The position numbers were made by a program, and so were the translations under genes. Under the pieces are notes generated by a model. That model ran no database searches. It was not told the origin of the DNA and saw only the letters and a program-made list of their open reading frames with translations. 64,000 bases of DNA from Kiritimatiellia bacterium (GTDB lineage Bacteria > Verrucomicrobiota > Kiritimatiellia > RFP12 > UBA1067), in the NCBI GenBank assembly GCA_017652705.1, contig JAGCAM010000079.1, positions 11,475 to 75,474 of the forward strand, in the 5' to 3' direction. This document shows, one piece after another, positions 7,691 through 63,853 of this stretch; position 1 is the stretch's first letter, and each line of letters starts with the position of its first letter.

Positions 7691-7699
7691 ATTATATCA
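7691..7699 (-). promoter_or_regulatory. extended -10 box TGATATAAT, 7 nt from the ATG at 7683 (leaderless candidate)
   Basis: The reverse complement of attatatca is TGATATAAT. Confidence 0.55.
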
Positions 7700-15191: not shown

Positions 15192-15200
15192 ATTATATCA
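15192..15200 (-). promoter_or_regulatory. extended -10 box TGATATAAT, 8 nt from the ATG at 15183 (leaderless candidate)
   Basis: The reverse complement of attatatca is TGATATAAT. Confidence 0.55.
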
Positions 15201-16739: not shown

Positions 16740-16748
16740 ATTATACCA
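16740..16748 (-). promoter_or_regulatory. extended -10 box TGGTATAAT, 7 nt from the dnaB ATG (leaderless candidate)
   Basis: The reverse complement of attatacca is TGGTATAAT. Confidence 0.55.
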
Positions 16749-30400: not shown

Positions 30401-33400
30401 TCAGTTCTCGCGGAAGATGAACTTTGAAAAAGCTCCCGGATCGCTGTTGTAGCCGTTGCCGCGCGTATGCAGGCGGGACATCTCGGTGGTGTGCGGGGTT
30501 CGCTTGTTGAGCGGACGGATCGTCTTGTCGCCGCGGCGGAGGCGGATGAAGTTCCCCGTCCAGGACATGCCCCCTGAAGTCGTCGGGTGCACCGCGTCTT
30601 TGTAGAGCGCGATCATCGGCTTGTACGGCACGTAAAGTTCGATGCTCCACGACTTCTCGTTCTTCGCGATCGCGCAGCGGACGCCTTCCGGCCCCTGGGC
30701 CTTCTTGAAGCCGTCGTACCACTCGAACTTGCCGCTCGCGTTGATAATCACGCGGCCGAAAGCGCCGTAGTCGCCGCCGAGGTCGATCAGCGCTTCGACG
30801 CAGTCGTTGACCCAGTAGTTGCCGGTGGGGCCGTCGTTGCAGAGGTTCGCCATGTCGCTTTCGCGGCAGTCCATGCCGAACGTGACTGCGGTCGGCGTCC
30901 ACACCGCGCGTATCGACGTGCCCTCTTTCGGCGTCGTGCCCTCCTTGCGCGCGCCGGTGAACTCCTGCGCTTCGGCCAGCTTCCAGCAAGCGTCGTCGAG
31001 CTTGCCGTCGATCACGGGGTCCTGCGACACTTTCTGCATCATGAGCGGCGCAAAGGCGCTGCCGGCGGCGTATTCGGCCGATTCCTTGAAAAACTGCGTG
31101 AAGCCGCCTTTGTAGTAGGCGATGCGCTTCATGAGCAGCTCGTCGCCGGCGCAGAGCTGCTCTGCCTCGGCGAAGAGCCCCTCCATCCTCAGAACTTCCG
31201 CCCGCGGATAGGAAATCGTGTAGATGTTCCGGTTGTTGACGCGGGAGACCTTCCACTGCCGCTCCCAGCCTGTCTCCTGCAGGCGGACGATCTCGCGCAG
31301 CTGTTTCGCCGCGGGCCCGAACATGCGGTCGGCGAAGGTGTCGTAGACGGAGTCGATGTTCAGCTCGGGGTTCCACAGCAGGCGCATCCAGCAGTAGGCC
31401 GAAAGCACCAGCCGGTCTACCGGGTAACGACCGTTGAGAAAGCTGCCCGCTGTGATTTCGCGCGTGTCGCGGTAGTGGCGCTGGGCCGTCTTGGCGAAGA
31501 TAAACGGCGCCTGGCAGGTCTCCGCCGGCCAGCAGATGTAGTGCCAGTTCTGCACCGGCCGACCCGTCACCCGCGCCCAGTCGCGGATGAGTTGCTCCTG
31601 GAACTCCTTCACCGGCTTCTCCTTCAGCATGGCGAGACCGGGCATCGTGCAGAGAAACGCCTCGACGTTGCCCTCTTCGACGAAGTCCACCCCGTCGGGT
31701 ATGTCGGTCGTGTTGTGGTACGGCAGAATGACTATTTTCCAGCCGGGCAGTTCCTTCTTCGCCCACTTGGCGAGTTCTTTCGTGAAGTAGCCCCAGAGCA
31801 CGTTCGAAAAGCTCACGCGGCTTTCGGCGATGTTCTCCTGCGGGTGTCTGGCGAGTATCGCCTTGCAGTATTTGCAGTTGCAGAAAACGGCGATGTCCCA
31901 CTGCGAAACGGTGATGCACTTCGCCAGCGGTGCGGTGATGTCGCCGCGTGGCGAACCGCTGGCGATTTCGGCGAGGATGCGCTCCTTGTACGTTTCGAGG
32001 GTGCGGGGGTTGCCGTAGCAGAGCAGCGGCATCGTCGCCCGTTTGCCGTCGTCGGTCAGCGCGAAGATTTCCGGCCGCGTGAACATGAAGTTGAGGTTGG
32101 TGTTCCTGTTCCACGCCCCGGGCGCATGCACGTGGTGCTCTCCGCAGTGGCTGTCGCCGTTTTTCCACACCCGGCACCATTCGTTGCCTTCGTACGGCCA
32201 GAGGTCGCGCTTGGCGAAAACCGGCTTGTCGGAGTAACTGAACGCCGGCAGCGAAAGCCCGTATGTTTTCACCACAGTGCGGCCGCCGTTCTTGACGTCC
32301 CAGTATTCGCGCACGGCGAGGGCGCGCTCCGCGAAGTCGGTCGCCGCGTAATCGCACCGCGCGCCGCAAAGGTAGACCGACCCGTCTTTCACGCACACCT
32401 TGAACCCGTGCGCGTCGACGCCCCAGCGCTCGCGCTGGTAGGTGGCGAGCCCCGCGCGGCGCGTCGCCGCTACATCGCCTATGTAGATCGCCGGGGCGTT
32501 GGTGACCGGTCTGCCGCCGCACTCGCGCACGATCCTGAGCCTGGCGCCGGTCATGTCCTCGATCACCGAGGCGATGAACTGCGCGGCGAACTGCCCGTCA
32601 CGCGAATCTTCGCAGACGATGTCCATCGCCGGTATCGAGCCGAGAGCGACGGTCGCGCCGGCGCCGCCCAGCCAGCGGAAATCTTTCACCGGCGTCAGAT
32701 CGCGCGCGTTCACGTTCATCGGGGCGCGCTGCGCATGATAAACCCTGCGGCGGACGTCGTCGACGCGCACCACCGCCCCGCCGCGCTTGCCCGATTCCTC
32801 CGCGGCGGCCATGAGCGCGAAGATCTCGTCGGTTTCCTCGGAAGGGAAAGGCTTCACCCCGGTTTTGAAAAACTTGAGTATCTCCTCGAGCATCGGCGCG
32901 TAACCCTCGTATCCCCCGAGATCGACCACCCCCTTGTCGGCGGTGAACGCCTGGCCGGAGTAATTCCACATCCCGGGCCCGCGCATCATGCGCAGACCGC
33001 CGAATCTGCCGTCGCGCCATCTGACGGCCACGAAATCGTTGCTTTCGTTCGAAAAGCAGCTGACCGATTCGGCACCGACCCCCATCACCGCCACGAGCGG
33101 CTCGAAACCGTGGATGCCGTACCAGGTGAACCGCGAGTGGGTGCGCTCAAGCGGCGAGGGAGCAGCGTAGTTGACGCCGCGCACCACGCCCAGCTCCCCT
33201 TTGCGCGCCGCCTGCACCTTCGAAGTCCACCGCAGCGCGGAACAGCTGAAGAAATTGGCGTTGACCCGGCGCGCCTCGTCGAATATCCGGGTGGCGGACT
33301 GGTAGTCGCTGGCGAGGGGCTTGTCGATGAACACCCGCTTGCCGCTCGCGAAAACCTCCCGCGCCTGGGCCAGATGCTCGCGGCCGTCCTGCGTTTCAAG

Positions 33401-33721
33401 CAGCACCACGTCGCACTTCGCCAGCACGTCTTTGACGCTCGGCTCCATTTCAACGCCCATCTCCTTCATCTGCCCGATGTATTTCGGGTAGTTGTTCGTC
33501 ACCGCGGGTATCGTGCGCGAGCCGTACTTGTACGCGGCCACGACCCGGAAATCTTTGAATATCTCGCGGTCGCGCTTGACGTTGATGTGCCTGGTGAACT
33601 CGGTGGCGTGCGACGTGTCGACGCCGATGACGCCGATCTTGATTTCGCCGGCCGTCGGGGCGGCCGCGGCCGCCGCCGCCGCGAGAAGTGCGATTGAGCG
33701 AAGTGGTCTGTCCATTTTCAT
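30401..33721 (-). CDS. secreted fusion: Gfo/Idh/MocA oxidoreductase domain + DUF4838 + CBM9-like domain
   Basis: The ATG at 33721 (MKMDRPLRSIALLAAAAAAAA) has an SD GGAG; the track ORF starts at a TTG at 33757.
- Oxidoreductase part: IKIGVIGVDTSHATEF, FIDKPLA.
- DUF4838 part: FCNCKYC, WHYICWP.
- CBM9-like part: IDGKLDDACWK. Confidence 0.85.
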   Translation of the reverse strand: MKMDRPLRSIALLAAAAAAAAPTAGEIKIGVIGVDTSHATEFTRHINVKRDREIFKDFRVVAAYKYGSRTIPAVTNNYPKYIGQMKEMGVEMEPSVKDVLAKCDVVLLETQDGREHLAQAREVFASGKRVFIDKPLASDYQSATRIFDEARRVNANFFSCSALRWTSKVQAARKGELGVVRGVNYAAPSPLERTHSRFTWYGIHGFEPLVAVMGVGAESVSCFSNESNDFVAVRWRDGRFGGLRMMRGPGMWNYSGQAFTADKGVVDLGGYEGYAPMLEEILKFFKTGVKPFPSEETDEIFALMAAAEESGKRGGAVVRVDDVRRRVYHAQRAPMNVNARDLTPVKDFRWLGGAGATVALGSIPAMDIVCEDSRDGQFAAQFIASVIEDMTGARLRIVRECGGRPVTNAPAIYIGDVAATRRAGLATYQRERWGVDAHGFKVCVKDGSVYLCGARCDYAATDFAERALAVREYWDVKNGGRTVVKTYGLSLPAFSYSDKPVFAKRDLWPYEGNEWCRVWKNGDSHCGEHHVHAPGAWNRNTNLNFMFTRPEIFALTDDGKRATMPLLCYGNPRTLETYKERILAEIASGSPRGDITAPLAKCITVSQWDIAVFCNCKYCKAILARHPQENIAESRVSFSNVLWGYFTKELAKWAKKELPGWKIVILPYHNTTDIPDGVDFVEEGNVEAFLCTMPGLAMLKEKPVKEFQEQLIRDWARVTGRPVQNWHYICWPAETCQAPFIFAKTAQRHYRDTREITAGSFLNGRYPVDRLVLSAYCWMRLLWNPELNIDSVYDTFADRMFGPAAKQLREIVRLQETGWERQWKVSRVNNRNIYTISYPRAEVLRMEGLFAEAEQLCAGDELLMKRIAYYKGGFTQFFKESAEYAAGSAFAPLMMQKVSQDPVIDGKLDDACWKLAEAQEFTGARKEGTTPKEGTSIRAVWTPTAVTFGMDCRESDMANLCNDGPTGNYWVNDCVEALIDLGGDYGAFGRVIINASGKFEWYDGFKKAQGPEGVRCAIAKNEKSWSIELYVPYKPMIALYKDAVHPTTSGGMSWTGNFIRLRRGDKTIRPLNKRTPHTTEMSRLHTRGNGYNSDPGAFSKFIFREN

Positions 33722-33876
33722 GACTCCGGTTAGTGGTTGTGGCTGTTCGATTCTCAAAGTCCAGAGCTGCAGACTCTGCCGTTCTGAAAGATATTTGTCG
33801 CGGAAACCGCGGGTGTGAAGCCAGCCTTCGGCGATGTTGGGCTTTTCAACATACCGCTCTCATCGCCGCACCGCCG

Positions 33877-35232
33877 TCAGCCGCGGAACCGCACCGGCGG
33901 CTCCCAGCCTTTCGCGTATTCGTCGCGGCACCACAGCTTCGCGGCAGCCCCTTTGTTCTGCAGCGCACCCGTCTTCGCGTCGAGCCGGATGGTTTCGCCG
34001 GTCGACCACGCCAAATTGGCGGTGTGCGCCATCTGCGTCGTCGCGAGCGACTTGTCCGGACCAGCGAAGCATAGTTTCGGATCCTTCGCGCGGATCGCGT
34101 CCACCCAGTTGCTGACGTGGTCGGTGTCCATGTAGCTCGCGCCGGTCGTGGACTGTATCCACTCGAACGCGCTCTGATCAAGCCACTTGCCGACGAGTTT
34201 GCTCTTGTTGTCGTACTGGAAAACCCCGTCCTGCGGGTGGAAAAGCACCGAACCGCCGGGGCCGAAGAACATGCACCCCGTGCCGATGTCGTGCGGCGCC
34301 TTCACGTTCGTCGACGAGAGGCATTCGAAAGTGATGATGCGCCCGTCGGCGAACTGGTAGCTCGCGTGCTGGGTGTCGGGCCATTCCCAGTCGTCGCCGG
34401 AGTGGAAGCACCTCGCGCCGAGCGAAACCGTCTTCACCGGGTAGTCCACGCCCATGCCCCAGCGGGCGATGTCGAGAAAGTGCGGCGAGTTGTTGCCCAT
34501 CTCGCCGGTGCCCCAGCGGCGGAACCAGTGCCAGTTGTAATGCACGTAATTGTCGTGGAAGTCCGTGCGCGGCGCCGGCCCCTGCCACATTTCCCAGTCC
34601 AGCCACTTCGGCGGGGCGACCTTCTTGCCGACGCCGATCGTCCCGCGGCGGGAGGTGTACCAGCAGCGTGCGTACTTTACATCGCCGATGAGCTCCTTGA
34701 GCCGCGGTATCATCTCGCGGTACACGCGCGAAGCGCGGCGCTGGCAGCCGATCTGCAGCACCTGGCCTGTCTTCTTCCACGTGTCGAGCAGAATCTGCCC
34801 CTCCTCGCCGTTGTAGCTGCACGGCTTCTCGACGTACACCGCCTTGCCCGCGAGCATGGCCATCCACGCCAGCGGCGCGTGCCAGTGGTCGGGCGTCTCG
34901 CAGATGATCCCGTCGATGTCTTTCATCTCGAGGATCTTGCGGATGTCCGTCGTCTGATAGGGCTTCTTGCCGGTGCGCTTCTCGACTTCCGCCACCGCCG
35001 CCGGCATCCCCTCCGGCCGCGTGTCGACGTCGCAGATCGCCGCCACTTCGACGCCGGGCGTCACCGACGCCGCGCGCATCACCCAAATGCCGCGGCACGC
35101 GCCGCGGCAGCCCATGACCGCCACCCGGACCCGGTTCGACGGAGCGCCCGCCCCGATGACGTTCTTCGCCGACGCGATGAAAAACGCGCCCGCCCCGCCT
35201 TTGATGAAGTTCCTTCTGTCCGTCTTGCTCAT
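33877..35232 (-). CDS. TAT-exported Gfo/Idh/MocA oxidoreductase (GH109-like architecture)
   Basis: 451 aa with a twin-arginine signal MSKTDRRNFIKGGAGAFF, a Rossmann RVAVMGCRG and EKP (VYVEKPCS). Confidence 0.85.
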   Translation of the reverse strand: MSKTDRRNFIKGGAGAFFIASAKNVIGAGAPSNRVRVAVMGCRGACRGIWVMRAASVTPGVEVAAICDVDTRPEGMPAAVAEVEKRTGKKPYQTTDIRKILEMKDIDGIICETPDHWHAPLAWMAMLAGKAVYVEKPCSYNGEEGQILLDTWKKTGQVLQIGCQRRASRVYREMIPRLKELIGDVKYARCWYTSRRGTIGVGKKVAPPKWLDWEMWQGPAPRTDFHDNYVHYNWHWFRRWGTGEMGNNSPHFLDIARWGMGVDYPVKTVSLGARCFHSGDDWEWPDTQHASYQFADGRIITFECLSSTNVKAPHDIGTGCMFFGPGGSVLFHPQDGVFQYDNKSKLVGKWLDQSAFEWIQSTTGASYMDTDHVSNWVDAIRAKDPKLCFAGPDKSLATTQMAHTANLAWSTGETIRLDAKTGALQNKGAAAKLWCRDEYAKGWEPPVRFRG

Positions 35233-35287
35233 TCGATTGCCTCGTTTCCCATGTTGGTTTATGTGATTGAACGCTCCCGTCGCCGCC

Positions 35288-36685
35288 TCACGGCTTCGGC
35301 CAGTACTTGTCGGTGTATTTGGTGGGTATGCCCACTTCGCCCCGCTCGAAATTGTTCGCCAGTATACGCCAGCCGAGGTCCAGCGCGTCGATGAGGTCGA
35401 TGTTCACCGAGAGATCCATCATCTCGCGCTCGAATTCCACGCCGTACTTCAGCAGCTTTTCGTCCCATTCCGACATTTTGAAGCCCATCGACTGCTTTTC
35501 GACCGTTTCCTTGTACTGGGCGTAAAGCTTGATCATCGCGTCCATGATCGTGCGGTGGTCTTCGCGCGTGCAGTTGTTCGCGCGGAACCAATCCTTCTCT
35601 TTCGCCGAATTCTCCCCGGCTTCGGCCTGACCGAGCACCGACCGCTGCAGCGTCGAATACGACTTGCCCTTGTTTACCTGCTGCTTCAGGCGCGACAGCG
35701 AGCCGAAAGGCTCGATGCGCCCGTTTTTGAGGTAGAACTGGCCTTCCGTGATGTAGCCGGTGTTGTCCGGCACCGGGTGGGTCACGTCGTCGCCCGGCAT
35801 CGTCGTCACCGCGAGAATCGTTATCGAGCCCGCGCCTTCGAAATCCACCGCCTTCTCGTAGCGGGCGGCGAGCTGGGAATAGAGATCGCCCGGATACCCG
35901 CGGTTGGAAGGTATCTGCTCCATCGTGATCGCGATTTCCTTCAGCGCGTCGGCGAAGGACGTCATGTCGGTCAGCAGCACCAGCGCGTCTTTGCCGTCGA
36001 GCGCGAACTTCTCCGCCACCGCCAGCGATATGTCGGGCACCAGCACGCACTCCACGGTCGGATCCGCCGCGGTGTGCACGAACATCACCGTCTTCGCGAG
36101 CGCGCCCGATTTGTCGAGGGTGTCGCGGAACTTCAGGTACTCGTCGTGTTTGAGCCCCATGCCGCCGATGACGATCACGTCAGAGTCGGCCTGCAGCGCG
36201 ATGCGCGCGAGCAGCTCGTTGTAGGGCTCGCCGGCGCGCGAGAAAATCGGCAGCTTCTGCGATTTCACCAGCGAGTTGAACAGGTCGATCATCGGTATGT
36301 TCGTGCGCACCATCTCGTGCGGCATCACCCGTTTCGCCGGGTTCACCGACGGCTGGCCGATCGGCGATGGATTCTCGGTTATCTCCGGCCCGCCGTCGCG
36401 CGGCGCCCCCGAACCCGTGAACGCCCGGCCGAGCAGATCGTAGGAAAAGGGAACTTTCATCGTCTCGCCGAGAAACCGCACGCTCGCCGCGGTGTCGACA
36501 CCGCGCGCCCCCGCGAAAATCTGAATCGTCACGTTCGGCCCGTCCAGCTTGATGACCTGCGCAAGCGACGTTCCAGCCCGCGAGACCACCTCCGCTATCT
36601 CGTGGTACTTGACACCCTCCGCGCGGAGCGTCGCCACCGAACCGGCCAGATCGTCTATTTTGTGATAAACAGTGTTGTTGAACAT
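35288..36685 (-). CDS. atpB: V/A-type ATPase subunit B homolog, solitary and divergent
   Basis: 465 aa. [67 protein letters not shown]...TREDH and LDLGWRIL follow the B (non-catalytic) subunit pattern. No other V-ATPase subunit is in the window. Confidence 0.8.
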
Positions 36686-36691
36686 AGCTTA

Positions 36692-36700
36692 ATTATATCA
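36692..36700 (-). promoter_or_regulatory. extended -10 box TGATATAAT, 6 nt from the ATG at 36685 (leaderless candidate)
   Basis: The reverse complement of attatatca is TGATATAAT. Confidence 0.55.
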
Positions 36701-36866
36701 AAAATCTCCCGCCTTGTGTATCGCGCCGGCGCATGTCGCGGATGTCCGCAACTCGCCCGCGACACATTCTTCGCGTCTTTGCGCACGGAAAAAACGGGGA
36801 ACCTCCAAGGGAGCGCCTGTCCCGGCGGCCCCGGCAAAAGCAGGCGCGGCGATGGCGGCAAACCGG

Positions 36867-37286
36867 TCAGGCGAAGGTGATGCGGCGGCTGTCGCCGAAG
36901 ATGCCGAACGCGACGCGGCGGGCGGAGGAGGGTATGAGAGACCCCGCCCGGTCCGGCCATTCCACCGCCAGAACCGCACCAGCGGCGAGATAATCCTCCC
37001 AGCCGACGGCGAGAACGTCTTCTTCGCCCCCGAGACGGTATAGGTCCATGTGAACGAGCGTAAGACCGTCTTCCGCCGGCGGGTGTTCCTGCACGATGCA
37101 GAACGTCGGGGAAGTTACGCGGCCGCGCACGCGCATCGCCGCCGCCAGCCCCTGTACGAAGGTGGTTTTGCCGGCGCCGAGGTCGCCTTCAAGGCAGACG
37201 ACGTCGCCGGGGCGCAGCCCCGCGGCGAACCGCCGCGCCAGTGCCCAGGTCGCTTCGGGCGACGCGGTCTCAAAGACACCCGTCAA
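36867..37286 (-). CDS. tsaE: tRNA threonylcarbamoyladenosine biosynthesis ATPase TsaE
   Basis: 139 aa with LEGDLGAGKTTFVQG, TSPTF and HMDLYRL. Confidence 0.9.
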   Translation of the reverse strand: MTGVFETASPEATWALARRFAAGLRPGDVVCLEGDLGAGKTTFVQGLAAAMRVRGRVTSPTFCIVQEHPPAEDGLTLVHMDLYRLGGEEDVLAVGWEDYLAAGAVLAVEWPDRAGSLIPSSARRVAFGIFGDSRRITFA

Positions 37287-38199
37287 CGGAAAGCTCCCTG
37301 AAACAGTATTCGAGGTACCGCGGCGAAAACGCCGAAGAGTGCGGAGTTGTGATGCAGTTGTCGAGCGCGGCGAGTTCGGCGGCGTTGGAACCGAACACCG
37401 GCAGCGTGACCGTGTGCTCGTTTTTTCTGACGTCGAGATACGCCCCGGCGATGCGGCGCGATTTCAGCGCGGCGTACAGCGCTTTTTCGTCGACGGAATT
37501 GCCGCGGCCGACGTTGATCACCACGGCGCGCCGGGGCAGCAGTCTCAGTTTCGCGGCGTCGAGATAATCATCGGTGCCGGTCGTGGACGGCAGCGCCATA
37601 ACCAGCCAGTCGGCGGCGGCGAACGATTTTTCAAGCGCCGCGCCGCGCACGCGGCGCCCGCCGCGGAAGACTCCGTGCGAGGTCACGCCGGTGACGTCCA
37701 CCCCGAGCGCCCCGAGTTTGGCGCCGATCGCCCTGCCGACGTTGCCGTAGCCCACGACAACCGCGCGGGTGCCGGCGACCTCCCGGCATTTGTCGGAGAG
37801 CTCCACCCTCGGCCACGGTTTACGGAGTTCGGGACGGAAAAAACCGTGCGCCCAGGCGAGAACGAACGCGGCGACCGATTCAGCCATGATCGCGCCATGG
37901 AAATGGCCGAAATGCATTTTCACGCGGTCGGGAGCCGATGACGGCAGCAGTTCGCGGCCGGCTGCCGGCGTGGCGAGCAGCACGAGACGCGGCGCGAGCC
38001 CGAACCATTCTTCCCGGAAGTTCCAGACGATCGCGTGGGTCGCTTCGGGCAGACGGCGCAGGAATTCGCGTTCGCCCCTCACCCTGACCACGCGCCCGCG
38101 TCCGCCGACGAGAGACTGCAGAACCGCGAGCGAAGCCGCATTGACGCGGAAGCATTTCTCCGGCCATTCCAGCCACACGAGATAGACGTTATTCGTCAA
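37270..38199 (-). CDS. D-isomer-specific 2-hydroxyacid dehydrogenase family protein
   Basis: 309 aa with an NAD site VVGYGNVGRAIGAKL and a C-terminal TPHSSA motif. Confidence 0.8.
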   Translation of the reverse strand: MTNNVYLVWLEWPEKCFRVNAASLAVLQSLVGGRGRVVRVRGEREFLRRLPEATHAIVWNFREEWFGLAPRLVLLATPAAGRELLPSSAPDRVKMHFGHFHGAIMAESVAAFVLAWAHGFFRPELRKPWPRVELSDKCREVAGTRAVVVGYGNVGRAIGAKLGALGVDVTGVTSHGVFRGGRRVRGAALEKSFAAADWLVMALPSTTGTDDYLDAAKLRLLPRRAVVINVGRGNSVDEKALYAALKSRRIAGAYLDVRKNEHTVTLPVFGSNAAELAALDNCITTPHSSAFSPRYLEYCFRELSVDGCL

Positions 38200-43813: not shown

Positions 43814-43843
43814 ATTATACCACTAATCGCCGCCGGAAATCAA
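43814..43843 (-). promoter_or_regulatory. promoter TTGATT-N18-TATAAT with TG, 6 nt from the ATG at 43807 (leaderless candidate)
   Basis: The extended -10 is attatacca at 43814-43822 (RC TGGTATAAT). The -35 is aatcaa at 43838-43843 (RC TTGATT), located in the loop of the adjacent hairpin. Confidence 0.5.
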
Positions 43844-54400: not shown

Positions 54401-55667
54401 GCAGCCCCCCGGTCACGAGATCGGCGAAGATCGACGAATATCCGAACGGCATCGGGAAAACATCCACCTTGAAATCGCAGCGCTGGCAGACCTCAACCGC
54501 ATCGCGGACCCACGGCCCGGTTCCGGTTATGCACAGCACCTTCGCCGCGCCGCCGAGCGATTTTTCGCACCATTTCAGATGCGGCGTCACGTACGCCGTC
54601 TGACTCGGATTCCACCTGAACCAGCCGTTGTGGCCGTCGTACTCCTTCGGCGGGTTGAGGTCGTATGTGCCGGCGAGCCGCAGCTTCTTCGGCGGCAGCG
54701 GCTTCTCCATCGTCGCCATCCTGACTATGTTGGTGAGCGCGGCGTCCGTCTCCGCCTTGTCCGCCGCGGCGATTTCGTCGAGCGTCTCCTGTATCGTCTT
54801 CGATATCTCGCGCGTGCCGTCTTCGTCGTGCAGGTAGCTCTTGCCGCCGATGCCGACCGCCCAGTACCCTGGCACGCGCTTCTCGATCATCTTAAGTATC
54901 GTCGCCGCGGCTGGCTTCGCCCCGTCGGAAAACTGCAGATACCCGAACCTGTTCGCCGAGAAAAAGCTCGCCATCACCGCCGAAGCGCCGAAATCGCCCC
55001 AGCCGCGCTCGGTGAAACGGAACCGCGAATGGTTGAACCGCCACACTTCGCCCGGCCTGACCTTCGCCCGCCCGTGCAGCGCCGCCCACGGTATGAAAAG
55101 CTCGAATTCCCAGCGGTCGCTGAATATCTTCGCCGCGCTCTTGATGCCGTCGGGCTTCCACGCCGGCTGCGGATTGTTCGGATCCATTCTCCAGAGCGTG
55201 GAACAGACGCCGAGCGAATTGACCATGAACTTGTAGAACCCGACCGCGTCGCCGACCGGATCAAGGTAAATCTCGCCGATGTCGTCGGTCTCGATCGCAT
55301 TGTCGCCGCTCTTGCGGGCCCGTTGCCGCAGATTGCCGGGCTGCGACTCGGGGTTGCACACCCCGACGTACAACCCCGCGTCGTCGTACATGATCGCCGC
55401 GCTCGTGCCCTCGAACTTGTGCTTCGGCCGCGGTTTTATGTATTCGTAGTAGACCGTGTGCGGCATGGCGTCTTTCCAGCACGCATCGTCGAGCGCCCCG
55501 TCGATTTTCGGCGGCGTCTTCGCCGGCATCGCCACGTCAAATGAGATTTCCGCCACGTCCACCGCCTGCACCGCCGCCGCGAACACTGCCGCAACGCCGC
55601 ATACCGCGGCCCTCAATGCCGTCAAGCGGCCGGTATGTCGGTCGACAAAAGATTTTTCAGTTTTCAT
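51420..55667 (-). CDS. giant secreted paralog of the 1672-aa protein (CBM9-like + GH42-like architecture)
   Basis: The start is reset to MKTEKSF (ATG at 55667), behind a TGGTAGAAT box. It has IDGALDDACWK, YYRDYLKKRYGTLAAYNRAHGT, SFGDECGY and ALAKFAKRGGKIYSD. Confidence 0.75.
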   Translation of the reverse strand: MKTEKSFVDRHTGRLTALRAAVCGVAAVFAAAVQAVDVAEISFDVAMPAKTPPKIDGALDDACWKDAMPHTVYYEYIKPRPKHKFEGTSAAIMYDDAGLYVGVCNPESQPGNLRQRARKSGDNAIETDDIGEIYLDPVGDAVGFYKFMVNSLGVCSTLWRMDPNNPQPAWKPDGIKSAAKIFSDRWEFELFIPWAALHGRAKVRPGEVWRFNHSRFRFTERGWGDFGASAVMASFFSANRFGYLQFSDGAKPAAATILKMIEKRVPGYWAVGIGGKSYLHDEDGTREISKTIQETLDEIAAADKAETDAALTNIVRMATMEKPLPPKKLRLAGTYDLNPPKEYDGHNGWFRWNPSQTAYVTPHLKWCEKSLGGAAKVLCITGTGPWVRDAVEVCQRCDFKVDVFPMPFGYSSIFADLVTGGLPLPRYRQFETMLAKNPEVIVLHYTYPSGIPAVYRCEIVRRVHDEGVGLVLRGSRVGRDLVPDEKYLEPDEEGRRILSAAGLSPKAVRAYRYGRGRVVCIDVPVPEFWNFAWRANYETRSTYFMNAARYAAGRNPASTVKFAQAAGVAEPLPLGTELYPFTVEAAPRGACDSVKYRVRSSDNELLVDETAPVKAGRNVFAVDISGYSGGDYYVDVVPGSGGCDDFASVRKFTVQSPVGAMTVNGTNRMVVAEGCRFDTVIAWEKPVPRGEKWTVDVLLRDMPYRQVRARCKIPVGGGARSVRYQIAAKPFPTKAGCVDVTLRKADGGAAAKVKKLVFFPTHRFEDYAMICWDGIGPGNLAELFAPPLMDEIGYNNHLSSGSLSAIFNGRALPYSTRVCLAAGPSGTVWTTQCPIPKSSRGDPEIKQWWDANGHDLNVHRPAVRERLARFYNKRIDATLPYGPLAWSFGDECGYSSDIGFGDAESEGYYRDYLKKRYGTLAAYNRAHGTNIADFAEAPHVRVKASRAANDWVTWYDQVQYAEHLYADTFHELTAIIKKRDPKARCGAEGSPGADIEYTLSKLEFWGPYGNKVDDELVRNIAPRCLRGIWWGGYQRSPRDGFAAEQWGYVLCGTLNADLWFQMDPASAESGMSSDFQPAPYVKRMLPTWRPLSRGIGALLCRVPMRKSAFAIYYSHASNHASTLSDDFPSAREGNGAFIDYCYRNGMDTAIVTRRSLCRLDEMKALFLSGAVALDDGETAALAKFAKRGGKIYSDCEPGVLDGYLARREKPPLSGLWKELKRGWKDDRITALLAESGITVKEKLSGISTDGVKFRIRELGDMTLLGFVTSTYNLGKRAEIELGEEKWVYESDVGFIGRSDRITIARLEKPHALYAAFKTEQRPPEVRLTKTEIAPGDEISLDTAVLRKGSVYRLETESPAGARIANRETLFCADRKTKVDFQFPYSDAPGRYKVVLRDMATGLESAAAVTLAAPVK

Positions 55668-55674
55668 GAAGTTA

Positions 55675-55683
55675 ATTCTACCA
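55675..55683 (-). promoter_or_regulatory. extended -10 box TGGTAGAAT, 7 nt from the ATG at 55667 (leaderless candidate)
   Basis: The reverse complement of attctacca is TGGTAGAAT. Confidence 0.5.
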
Positions 55684-63844: not shown

Positions 63845-63853
63845 AGTATATCA
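63845..63853 (-). promoter_or_regulatory. extended -10 box TGATATACT, 7 nt from the ATG at 63837 (leaderless candidate)
   Basis: The reverse complement of agtatatca is TGATATACT. Confidence 0.5.

Follow-up and report, generated by a model that had tools for sequence, protein, structure and literature searches.

In the bacterial V/A-type ATPases closest to the one described here, which we take to be those of the chlamydia/spirochaete type, subunit B belongs to the family NF002555 (PRK02118) and is encoded in an operon ordered E-DUF2764-A-B-D-I-K. The role of B as the donor of an arginine finger rests on established knowledge of F- and V-type ATPases. Split or scattered ATP synthase operons are also known in other bacteria, where one complex is encoded at several loci with separate promoters. 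For Kiritimatiella glycovorans, reliance on a V-type ATP synthase alongside Rnf has been described (PMC5148204). Here we examine a B subunit gene in a 64-kb stretch of a 101-kb contig (the window, by which we mean the whole of the stretch analysed). Its product (P0001) is an exact match to MBO7721733.1, 'MAG: V-type ATP synthase subunit B [Kiritimatiellae bacterium]', and the correct annotation is already public under that accession. An identical protein is encoded on a metagenome scaffold that falls wholly within the window and bears the sample label XIEF21-1, a label common to goat, sheep and yak RGIG genomes. We take the XIEF21-1/RGIG label to denote a ruminant gastro-intestinal survey, and the window to come from a ruminant-gut Kiritimatiellae MAG.

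Our preferred reading, to which we give a probability of about 0.8, is that the window gene encodes the canonical non-catalytic B subunit of this organism's V/A-type rotary ATP synthase and has been displaced from its operon. Its family is known and the gene is ordinary within it; the genomic arrangement, though unusual, is typical of the clade and does not point to a new system, and the gene is probably single-copy in the genome. In an A3B3 head, three copies of B would be interleaved with three of A, and by homology every B would lend its arginine finger (R332) to the catalytic centre of an A subunit. In the gut clade the ancestral operon has broken up: D-I-K lies next to neither A nor B in the loci read, and in many species B is parted from E-X-A as well (X being DUF2764). 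Because of this break-up the window gene, alone between tsaE and an oxidoreductase gene, would be transcribed from an extended -10 promoter of its own. A, D, I and K would be encoded elsewhere in this genome, and the enzyme would assemble normally.

The gene occupies 35288-36685 on the minus strand and encodes 465 aa plus a stop codon from an ATG start, as established from the ORF list, the sequence, and Pfam, NCBIfam and PDB matches. Alternative starts upstream or downstream were rejected, the N-terminus MFNN.VYHKID being common to all orthologues. Among NCBIfam models the equivalog NF002555, 'V-type ATP synthase subunit B', fits best; it scores 702.8 bits against a cut-off of 431 and covers the protein over its full length, in two stretches because a 32-residue insertion interrupts the match. 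The protein has the three-domain set of an N-terminal beta-barrel (PF02874, ATP-synt_ab_N; 21.8 bits, barely over the Pfam cut-off of 20.9), an alpha/beta nucleotide-binding domain (PF00006, ATP-synt_ab; 179.5 bits) and the V/A-specific C-terminal domain (PF22919, ATP-synt_VA_C; 40.9 bits). Its top solved relatives are all B subunits of A/V-type enzymes, matched over residues 7-463 with E = 1e-65 to 1e-79: M. mazei 2c61 (E = 5e-79), E. hirae NtpB (3vr2) and T. thermophilus 3a5c. An earlier reading of this DNA, made from the sequence without database searches (the sequence-only reading), had named the ORF a V/A-type B subunit, and the NF002555, Pfam and PDB matches bear this out. Other assignments were considered and rejected. 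The protein is a homologue, not a member, of the archaeal A-type B family (TIGR01041; 315.1 bits vs. a cut-off of 844.65) and of the eukaryotic V1 B family (TIGR01040; 274.1 bits vs. 804.65). The FliI/YscN type III secretion ATPase model gives 131 bits vs. a cut-off of 379.5, and the Walker A lysine is missing; scores for the F1 ATPase models of NCBIfam are far under their cut-offs.

Compared with bacterial B subunits of the NF002555 type, the window protein has the same three-domain architecture, a degenerate P-loop and a conserved SLSR motif. It is 62-67% identical to B subunits of Treponema, Clostridia and other Spirochaetota, and 68-70% identical to those of other Kiritimatiellales and related PVC-group MAGs, which are encoded in complete operons. 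It differs from them in its 32-residue insertion, in that its gene does not adjoin A or D, and in the predicted promoter of its own in a leaderless layout. Archaeal A-type, Enterococcus and Thermus B subunits share the SLSRL...TREDH framework with the window protein. They differ at one loop, which spans 8 residues in them (NSGIGAGK in 2c61) and 39 in the window protein.

At the P-loop position (F148-SRAGEPY155; 36221..36244, minus strand), aligned to PIFSASGLPHN of 2c61, the window protein reads FSRAGEPY and lacks GxxxxGK[ST], whereas the A subunits of the clade read GPFGAGKT there. As far as the motif can tell, this loss is the hallmark of a non-catalytic B subunit. The SLSRL motif (G328-SLSR332-L; 35690..35704, minus strand), which is also present in the solved M. 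mazei B 2c61, is retained: in an alignment of 78 sequences S329, L330, S331 and L333 are invariant, and R332 is found in at least 90%. By homology, R332 would be the arginine finger that B gives to the catalytic site of A. The non-catalytic pattern proposed earlier is therefore upheld, by FSRAGEPY at the Walker A position and by the retention of SLSR332.

When the window was searched by tblastn with the E, DUF2764, A, D, I and K proteins of relatives (E <= 0.1), the sole match was the B gene itself, through A/B paralogy. Therefore, B is solitary within the 64 kb, and the earlier statement that no other V-ATPase subunit gene lies there holds for these six subunits.

The ancestral E-DUF2764-A-B-D-I-K operon is fragmented in ruminant-gut Kiritimatiellae. 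With A as the query we scanned species-representative genomes and then ran tblastn; the gut clade was defined by an A at least 79% identical to the query. Where B still directly follows A in this clade, the operon consists of E (190 aa), DUF2764 (150 aa), A (588 aa) and B, in that order; E-X-A-B-D-I-K is kept in more distant Kiritimatiellales, other PVC bacteria, Treponema and Clostridia. In a scan of JGI metagenomes with B, the full E-X-A-B-D-I-K order was near universal under about 75% B identity, and loci above about 79% were either E-X-A-B or solitary B. E-X-A operons that lack B were found in 11 species-representative genomes (L011, L012, L013, L017 and L020-L026), each with at least 1.3 kb of contig beyond A, and the genes after A are convergent or unrelated (GT10 fucosyltransferase, ApbE, a PIN protein, GDSL lipase). 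The sequence-only reading had set its proposal against a simpler case, in which a V-type operon elsewhere lacks B; at the level of the clade, these 11 operons are that case. Across the clade A is 79-98% identical, and E and DUF2764 are equally well conserved. No D, I or K gene turned up within 4-10 kb of A or B at the gut-clade loci L001-L027 and L089-L118. A search with the D subunit gave only relatives at an identity of at least 66%, with accessions outside the known gut-clade MAG blocks; in the one of these whose context was read (L190), B is directly upstream of D-I-K, so this is not a separate D-I-K locus. In the MAG RGIG9840, the A subunit of a B-less operon (MBO7308113.1) and a solitary, FtsH-linked B (P0110, MBO7309459.1) are 1,346 accession numbers apart, and this numbering indicates that the two are most likely in the same assembly. 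None of the A proteins retrieved carries an accession close to MBO7721733.1.

At least nine distinct neighbourhoods were recorded for solitary B, and an extended -10-like box precedes the gene in each. In the window (L006), B lies between tsaE and a GFO/IDH/MocA oxidoreductase gene. Elsewhere it is followed by FTHFS (L007), by a SASA-family gene (L092) or by FtsH-DAC-FtsK (L004, L095-L104), lies between ETF genes and a GH129 gene (L089) or between an MFS transporter gene and a convergent GFO/IDH/MocA gene (L091), or is preceded by TatD (L191); in L110, L111 and L114 it is solitary, with no A within at least 3.8 kb upstream. The arrangement differs from split ATP synthase operons elsewhere in that the separated subunits, A and B, are partners in the 3:3 catalytic head, and in that the split arose repeatedly within one gut clade. 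Given this scatter of V-ATPase genes, an isolated A or B gene in gut Kiritimatiellae is no sign of a novel ATPase, and annotators should treat such genes with caution.

Several loci bear on how these rearrangements may have come about. B followed by FtsH, diadenylate cyclase (DAC) and often FtsK is seen in L001-L003 (11326-14030), L004 (11339-16960) and L095-L104, with or without E-X-A. Since the B-FtsH-DAC order is present both with and without A, it seems that in this sub-lineage E-X-A moved off B, rather than B moving. In JGI loci L125, L133, L136, L142 and L157, which belong to non-gut lineages, 0.7-2.5 kb of extra DNA separates A from B in an otherwise intact operon; to judge by this layout, something is inserted between the two genes. 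L130 is also of this A-B gap type, with only a partial A at the contig edge. Directly downstream of E-X-A-B in L105-L107 (7344-8228) is a gene resembling a Y1-type (REP-associated tyrosine) transposase, with a faint Pfam match, and a gene of this kind is a possible agent of local rearrangements.

We also examined the relationship of the window protein to other B subunits. At least 120 cluster representatives share 80-89% identity with this protein, and every named one among them is called Kiritimatiellae; the same range applies to hundreds of B subunits in the clade. Outside the insertion the alignment is near-invariant, with a mean column identity of 81%. The orthologues include B genes directly after A in E-X-A-B operons (L001-3, L009, L010, L014-16, L018, L105-108, L112, L115 and L118), to which the window gene is 83% identical. 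In a neighbour-joining tree on 429 ungapped columns, a small B tree that included operons of other Kiritimatiellales and PVC bacteria with Treponema as the outgroup, the window protein is sister to L007, inside the gut clade and interleaved with the A-adjacent B genes, with no long branch. A horizontal or mobile origin was considered and rejected: the GC content of the gene matches its surroundings, and the gut-clade B sequences group apart from those of other Kiritimatiellales, PVC bacteria and Treponema.

Relative to L007, dN/dS of the B gene is 0.069/0.911 (about 0.07), and the gene is under strong purifying selection, as in a working subunit. This value bears on whether the gene might be a relic, a decaying or idle remnant in a genome that has lost its V-ATPase. 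The isolation of B within the 64 kb and the failure of the D-subunit search to locate D-I-K for the gut clade are in keeping with such a loss. However, the B reading frame is intact, dN/dS is low at a dS of about 0.9, a strong promoter-like box precedes the gene, and A, E and DUF2764 are equally conserved across the clade. We therefore regard a relic as extremely improbable.

The most variable part of the protein is the insertion. An alignment of 120 homologues plus outgroups defines it as a lineage-specific element of 32 residues, G340-N371 (35573..35668, minus strand), which are extra relative to orthologues of 431-434 aa that read QQVNK-x-TREDH. It is placed between the arginine-finger strand and the TREDH block, seven residues past SLSR332; by homology, the TREDH block would open the C-terminal domain, with the insertion at that junction. 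The extra sequence of roughly 35 aa reported earlier between SLSRLKQQV and TREDH is thus real, with a length of 32 aa. The sequence-only reading had named an insertion common to ordinary B subunits as an outcome that would count against it, and at clade level this is what is observed. Of the 120 closest cluster representatives, 21 have a single residue between K339 and T373, 14 have 9-19 and 85 have 29-55 (the lengths seen are 1, 9, 19, 29-36, 41 and 55), and with at least 29 residues at the site in 85 of 120, a long insertion is the common state in the gut clade.

The insertion keeps a loose motif, G-x-SRSxLQDK...SDKExxRxxN, from which the window version departs at several otherwise conserved positions. 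Between the window and L007 it is conserved, with a dN of 0.16 and a dS of 2.3 (dN/dS 0.07); against more distant relatives its dN reaches 0.7-0.9, vs. 0.08-0.10 for the core of the protein. It is a clade-typical, fast-evolving surface elaboration. An AlphaFold2 monomer model, built with 78 close homologues as input, places two short helices at residues 345-355 and 360-370, at low confidence (mean pLDDT 55.9, pTM 0.46) and in a quality too poor for a fold search; the model weakly suggests a helix-turn-helix, and the insertion may be a helical hairpin. The longest insertions, of 54 residues, are found in two B homologues of 488 aa, P0066 and P0088 (locus L191, 4001-5467). They look like a unit of some 15 residues duplicated in tandem (SSRSILQAKLFANSE, then AAKSVIQSKLRAKGE), and this unit loosely resembles the 12-residue segment that precedes it. 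Local duplication may thus be how the insertion grew.

Genomic context was read for six B genes with a long insertion (L006, L007, L089, L091, L092 and L191), and each of the six is solitary; the B genes that adjoin A have just 0-20 extra residues. With so few sequences, related to one another by descent, this link is a lead and not a result. In the JGI metagenome scan with B, no long-insertion forms were among the matches. A variable element of 29-55 residues past the arginine finger, so far seen only in unlinked B, may tune activity or assembly. We find it unlikely that the insertion is a functional module in a stricter sense, such as a regulator of ATP hydrolysis or a checkpoint of assembly or stoichiometry, whose origin coincided with the departure of B from the A-B operon in gut Kiritimatiellae.

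The sequence-only reading had raised a divergent paralogue clade, and the same link could be taken to favour a neofunctionalised paralogue: a divergent second copy of B would have left the operon and gained the insertion for a new role, with the canonical B staying by A. The window gene is solitary with a promoter-like box of its own, the long-insertion genes of known context are all solitary, and the A-adjacent genes have short insertions at most. Against this, no locus or genome among those examined has two B genes, and many gut-clade E-X-A operons have no B at all. The window protein, at 83% identity, is nested among the products of the A-adjacent genes without the separate long branch expected of a divergent paralogue clade, and it is near-invariant outside the insertion, including the arginine-finger motif and interface residues. 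Solitary B genes free of the insertion also exist (L004, L095-104, L110, L111 and L114). The identity of 80-89% to other representatives, the placement in the tree and the dN/dS of about 0.07 all speak against divergence, and a paralogue with a new role is in our view quite improbable.

An extended -10 promoter-like box, TGATATAAT, lies at 36692..36700 (minus strand), 6 nt before the ATG at 36685, just where it had been noted before. A -35-like hexamer, TACACA, is located 17 nt upstream of TATAAT at 36715..36720 (minus strand), a consensus match only. Together the candidate region has 10 of 12 consensus matches plus the TG of an extended -10. The sequence TGNTATAAT occurs eight times in the window vs. 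0.05 expected, always on the minus strand. Six of these boxes (2394-2402, 7691-7699, 15192-15200, 16740-16748, 36692-36700 and 43814-43822, minus strand) are each followed after 6-8 nt by the ATG of a long ORF, at 2385, 7683, 15183, 16732, 36685 and 43807, respectively, and two near-match boxes at 55675-55683 and 63845-63853 (minus strand) are placed likewise before the ATGs at 55667 and 63837. The layout at B matches this window-wide pattern and is therefore one instance of it. All boxes, and nearly all large plausible genes of the window, are on the minus strand. The spacing predicts a leaderless or near-leaderless B mRNA, starting at or next to the ATG, and to judge by the pattern, this Kiritimatiellae genome may commonly use leaderless mRNAs.

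The box is also conserved before orthologous genes. TTTTGATATAAT-N6-ATG precedes the closest orthologue (L007/L008), despite a different upstream neighbour, and TGGTATAAT-N6-ATG precedes B in L114. In the remaining solitary B genes a leader of 30-50 nt with a Shine-Dalgarno sequence comes after the extended -10-like box; the A-adjacent B genes lack such a box and overlap or closely abut A. It is very probable, from this conservation, that the window gene has its own promoter in a leaderless layout, as previously proposed. A scan of 33500-37400 against Rfam found no RNA family. A and B, needed 1:1 in the catalytic head, would then be expressed from unlinked promoters, which raises the question of how their stoichiometry is kept. 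Neither the unlinked promoters nor the insertion changes the kind of machine.

Finally, we considered the genes downstream of B. The first encodes a GFO/IDH/MocA oxidoreductase (33877-35232, minus strand) with a twin-arginine signal (RRNFIKGG), and is separated from B by a spacer of 55 nt (35233..35287, minus strand). A search for TGNTANANT in this spacer and in the next (33722-33876) gave no match, and no terminator-like hairpin was found on the minus strand in either (fold z-score 0.17 for 35233-35287). The earlier report of spacers without a box is thus confirmed, and read-through from B into the oxidoreductase gene, which it had also suggested, is possible. One could go further and regard B as functionally part of a glycan-degradation cluster, the first gene of a polycistron that also takes in the TAT oxidoreductase and glycosidase genes. 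B has the same orientation as the genes after it, the 55-nt spacer has neither promoter-like box nor terminator, and a GFO/IDH/MocA gene also lies by B in L091, though convergent. Against this, the genes found downstream of B at orthologous solitary loci all differ (FTHFS, GH129, SASA-family, FtsH-DAC-FtsK) and are often convergent, so there is no conserved linkage between B and what follows it. Without such linkage, physical read-through would be incidental. A role of B in glycan degradation is therefore very improbable, and we treat its position at the head of the cluster, which the sequence-only reading had pointed out, as incidental.

The earlier description of the downstream neighbourhood itself, a TAT oxidoreductase followed by a glycosidase array, was accurate. 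The second gene downstream of B (30401-33757, minus strand) encodes a GFO/IDH/MocA domain fused to DUF4838, and is followed by GH3 and further DUF4838 proteins.
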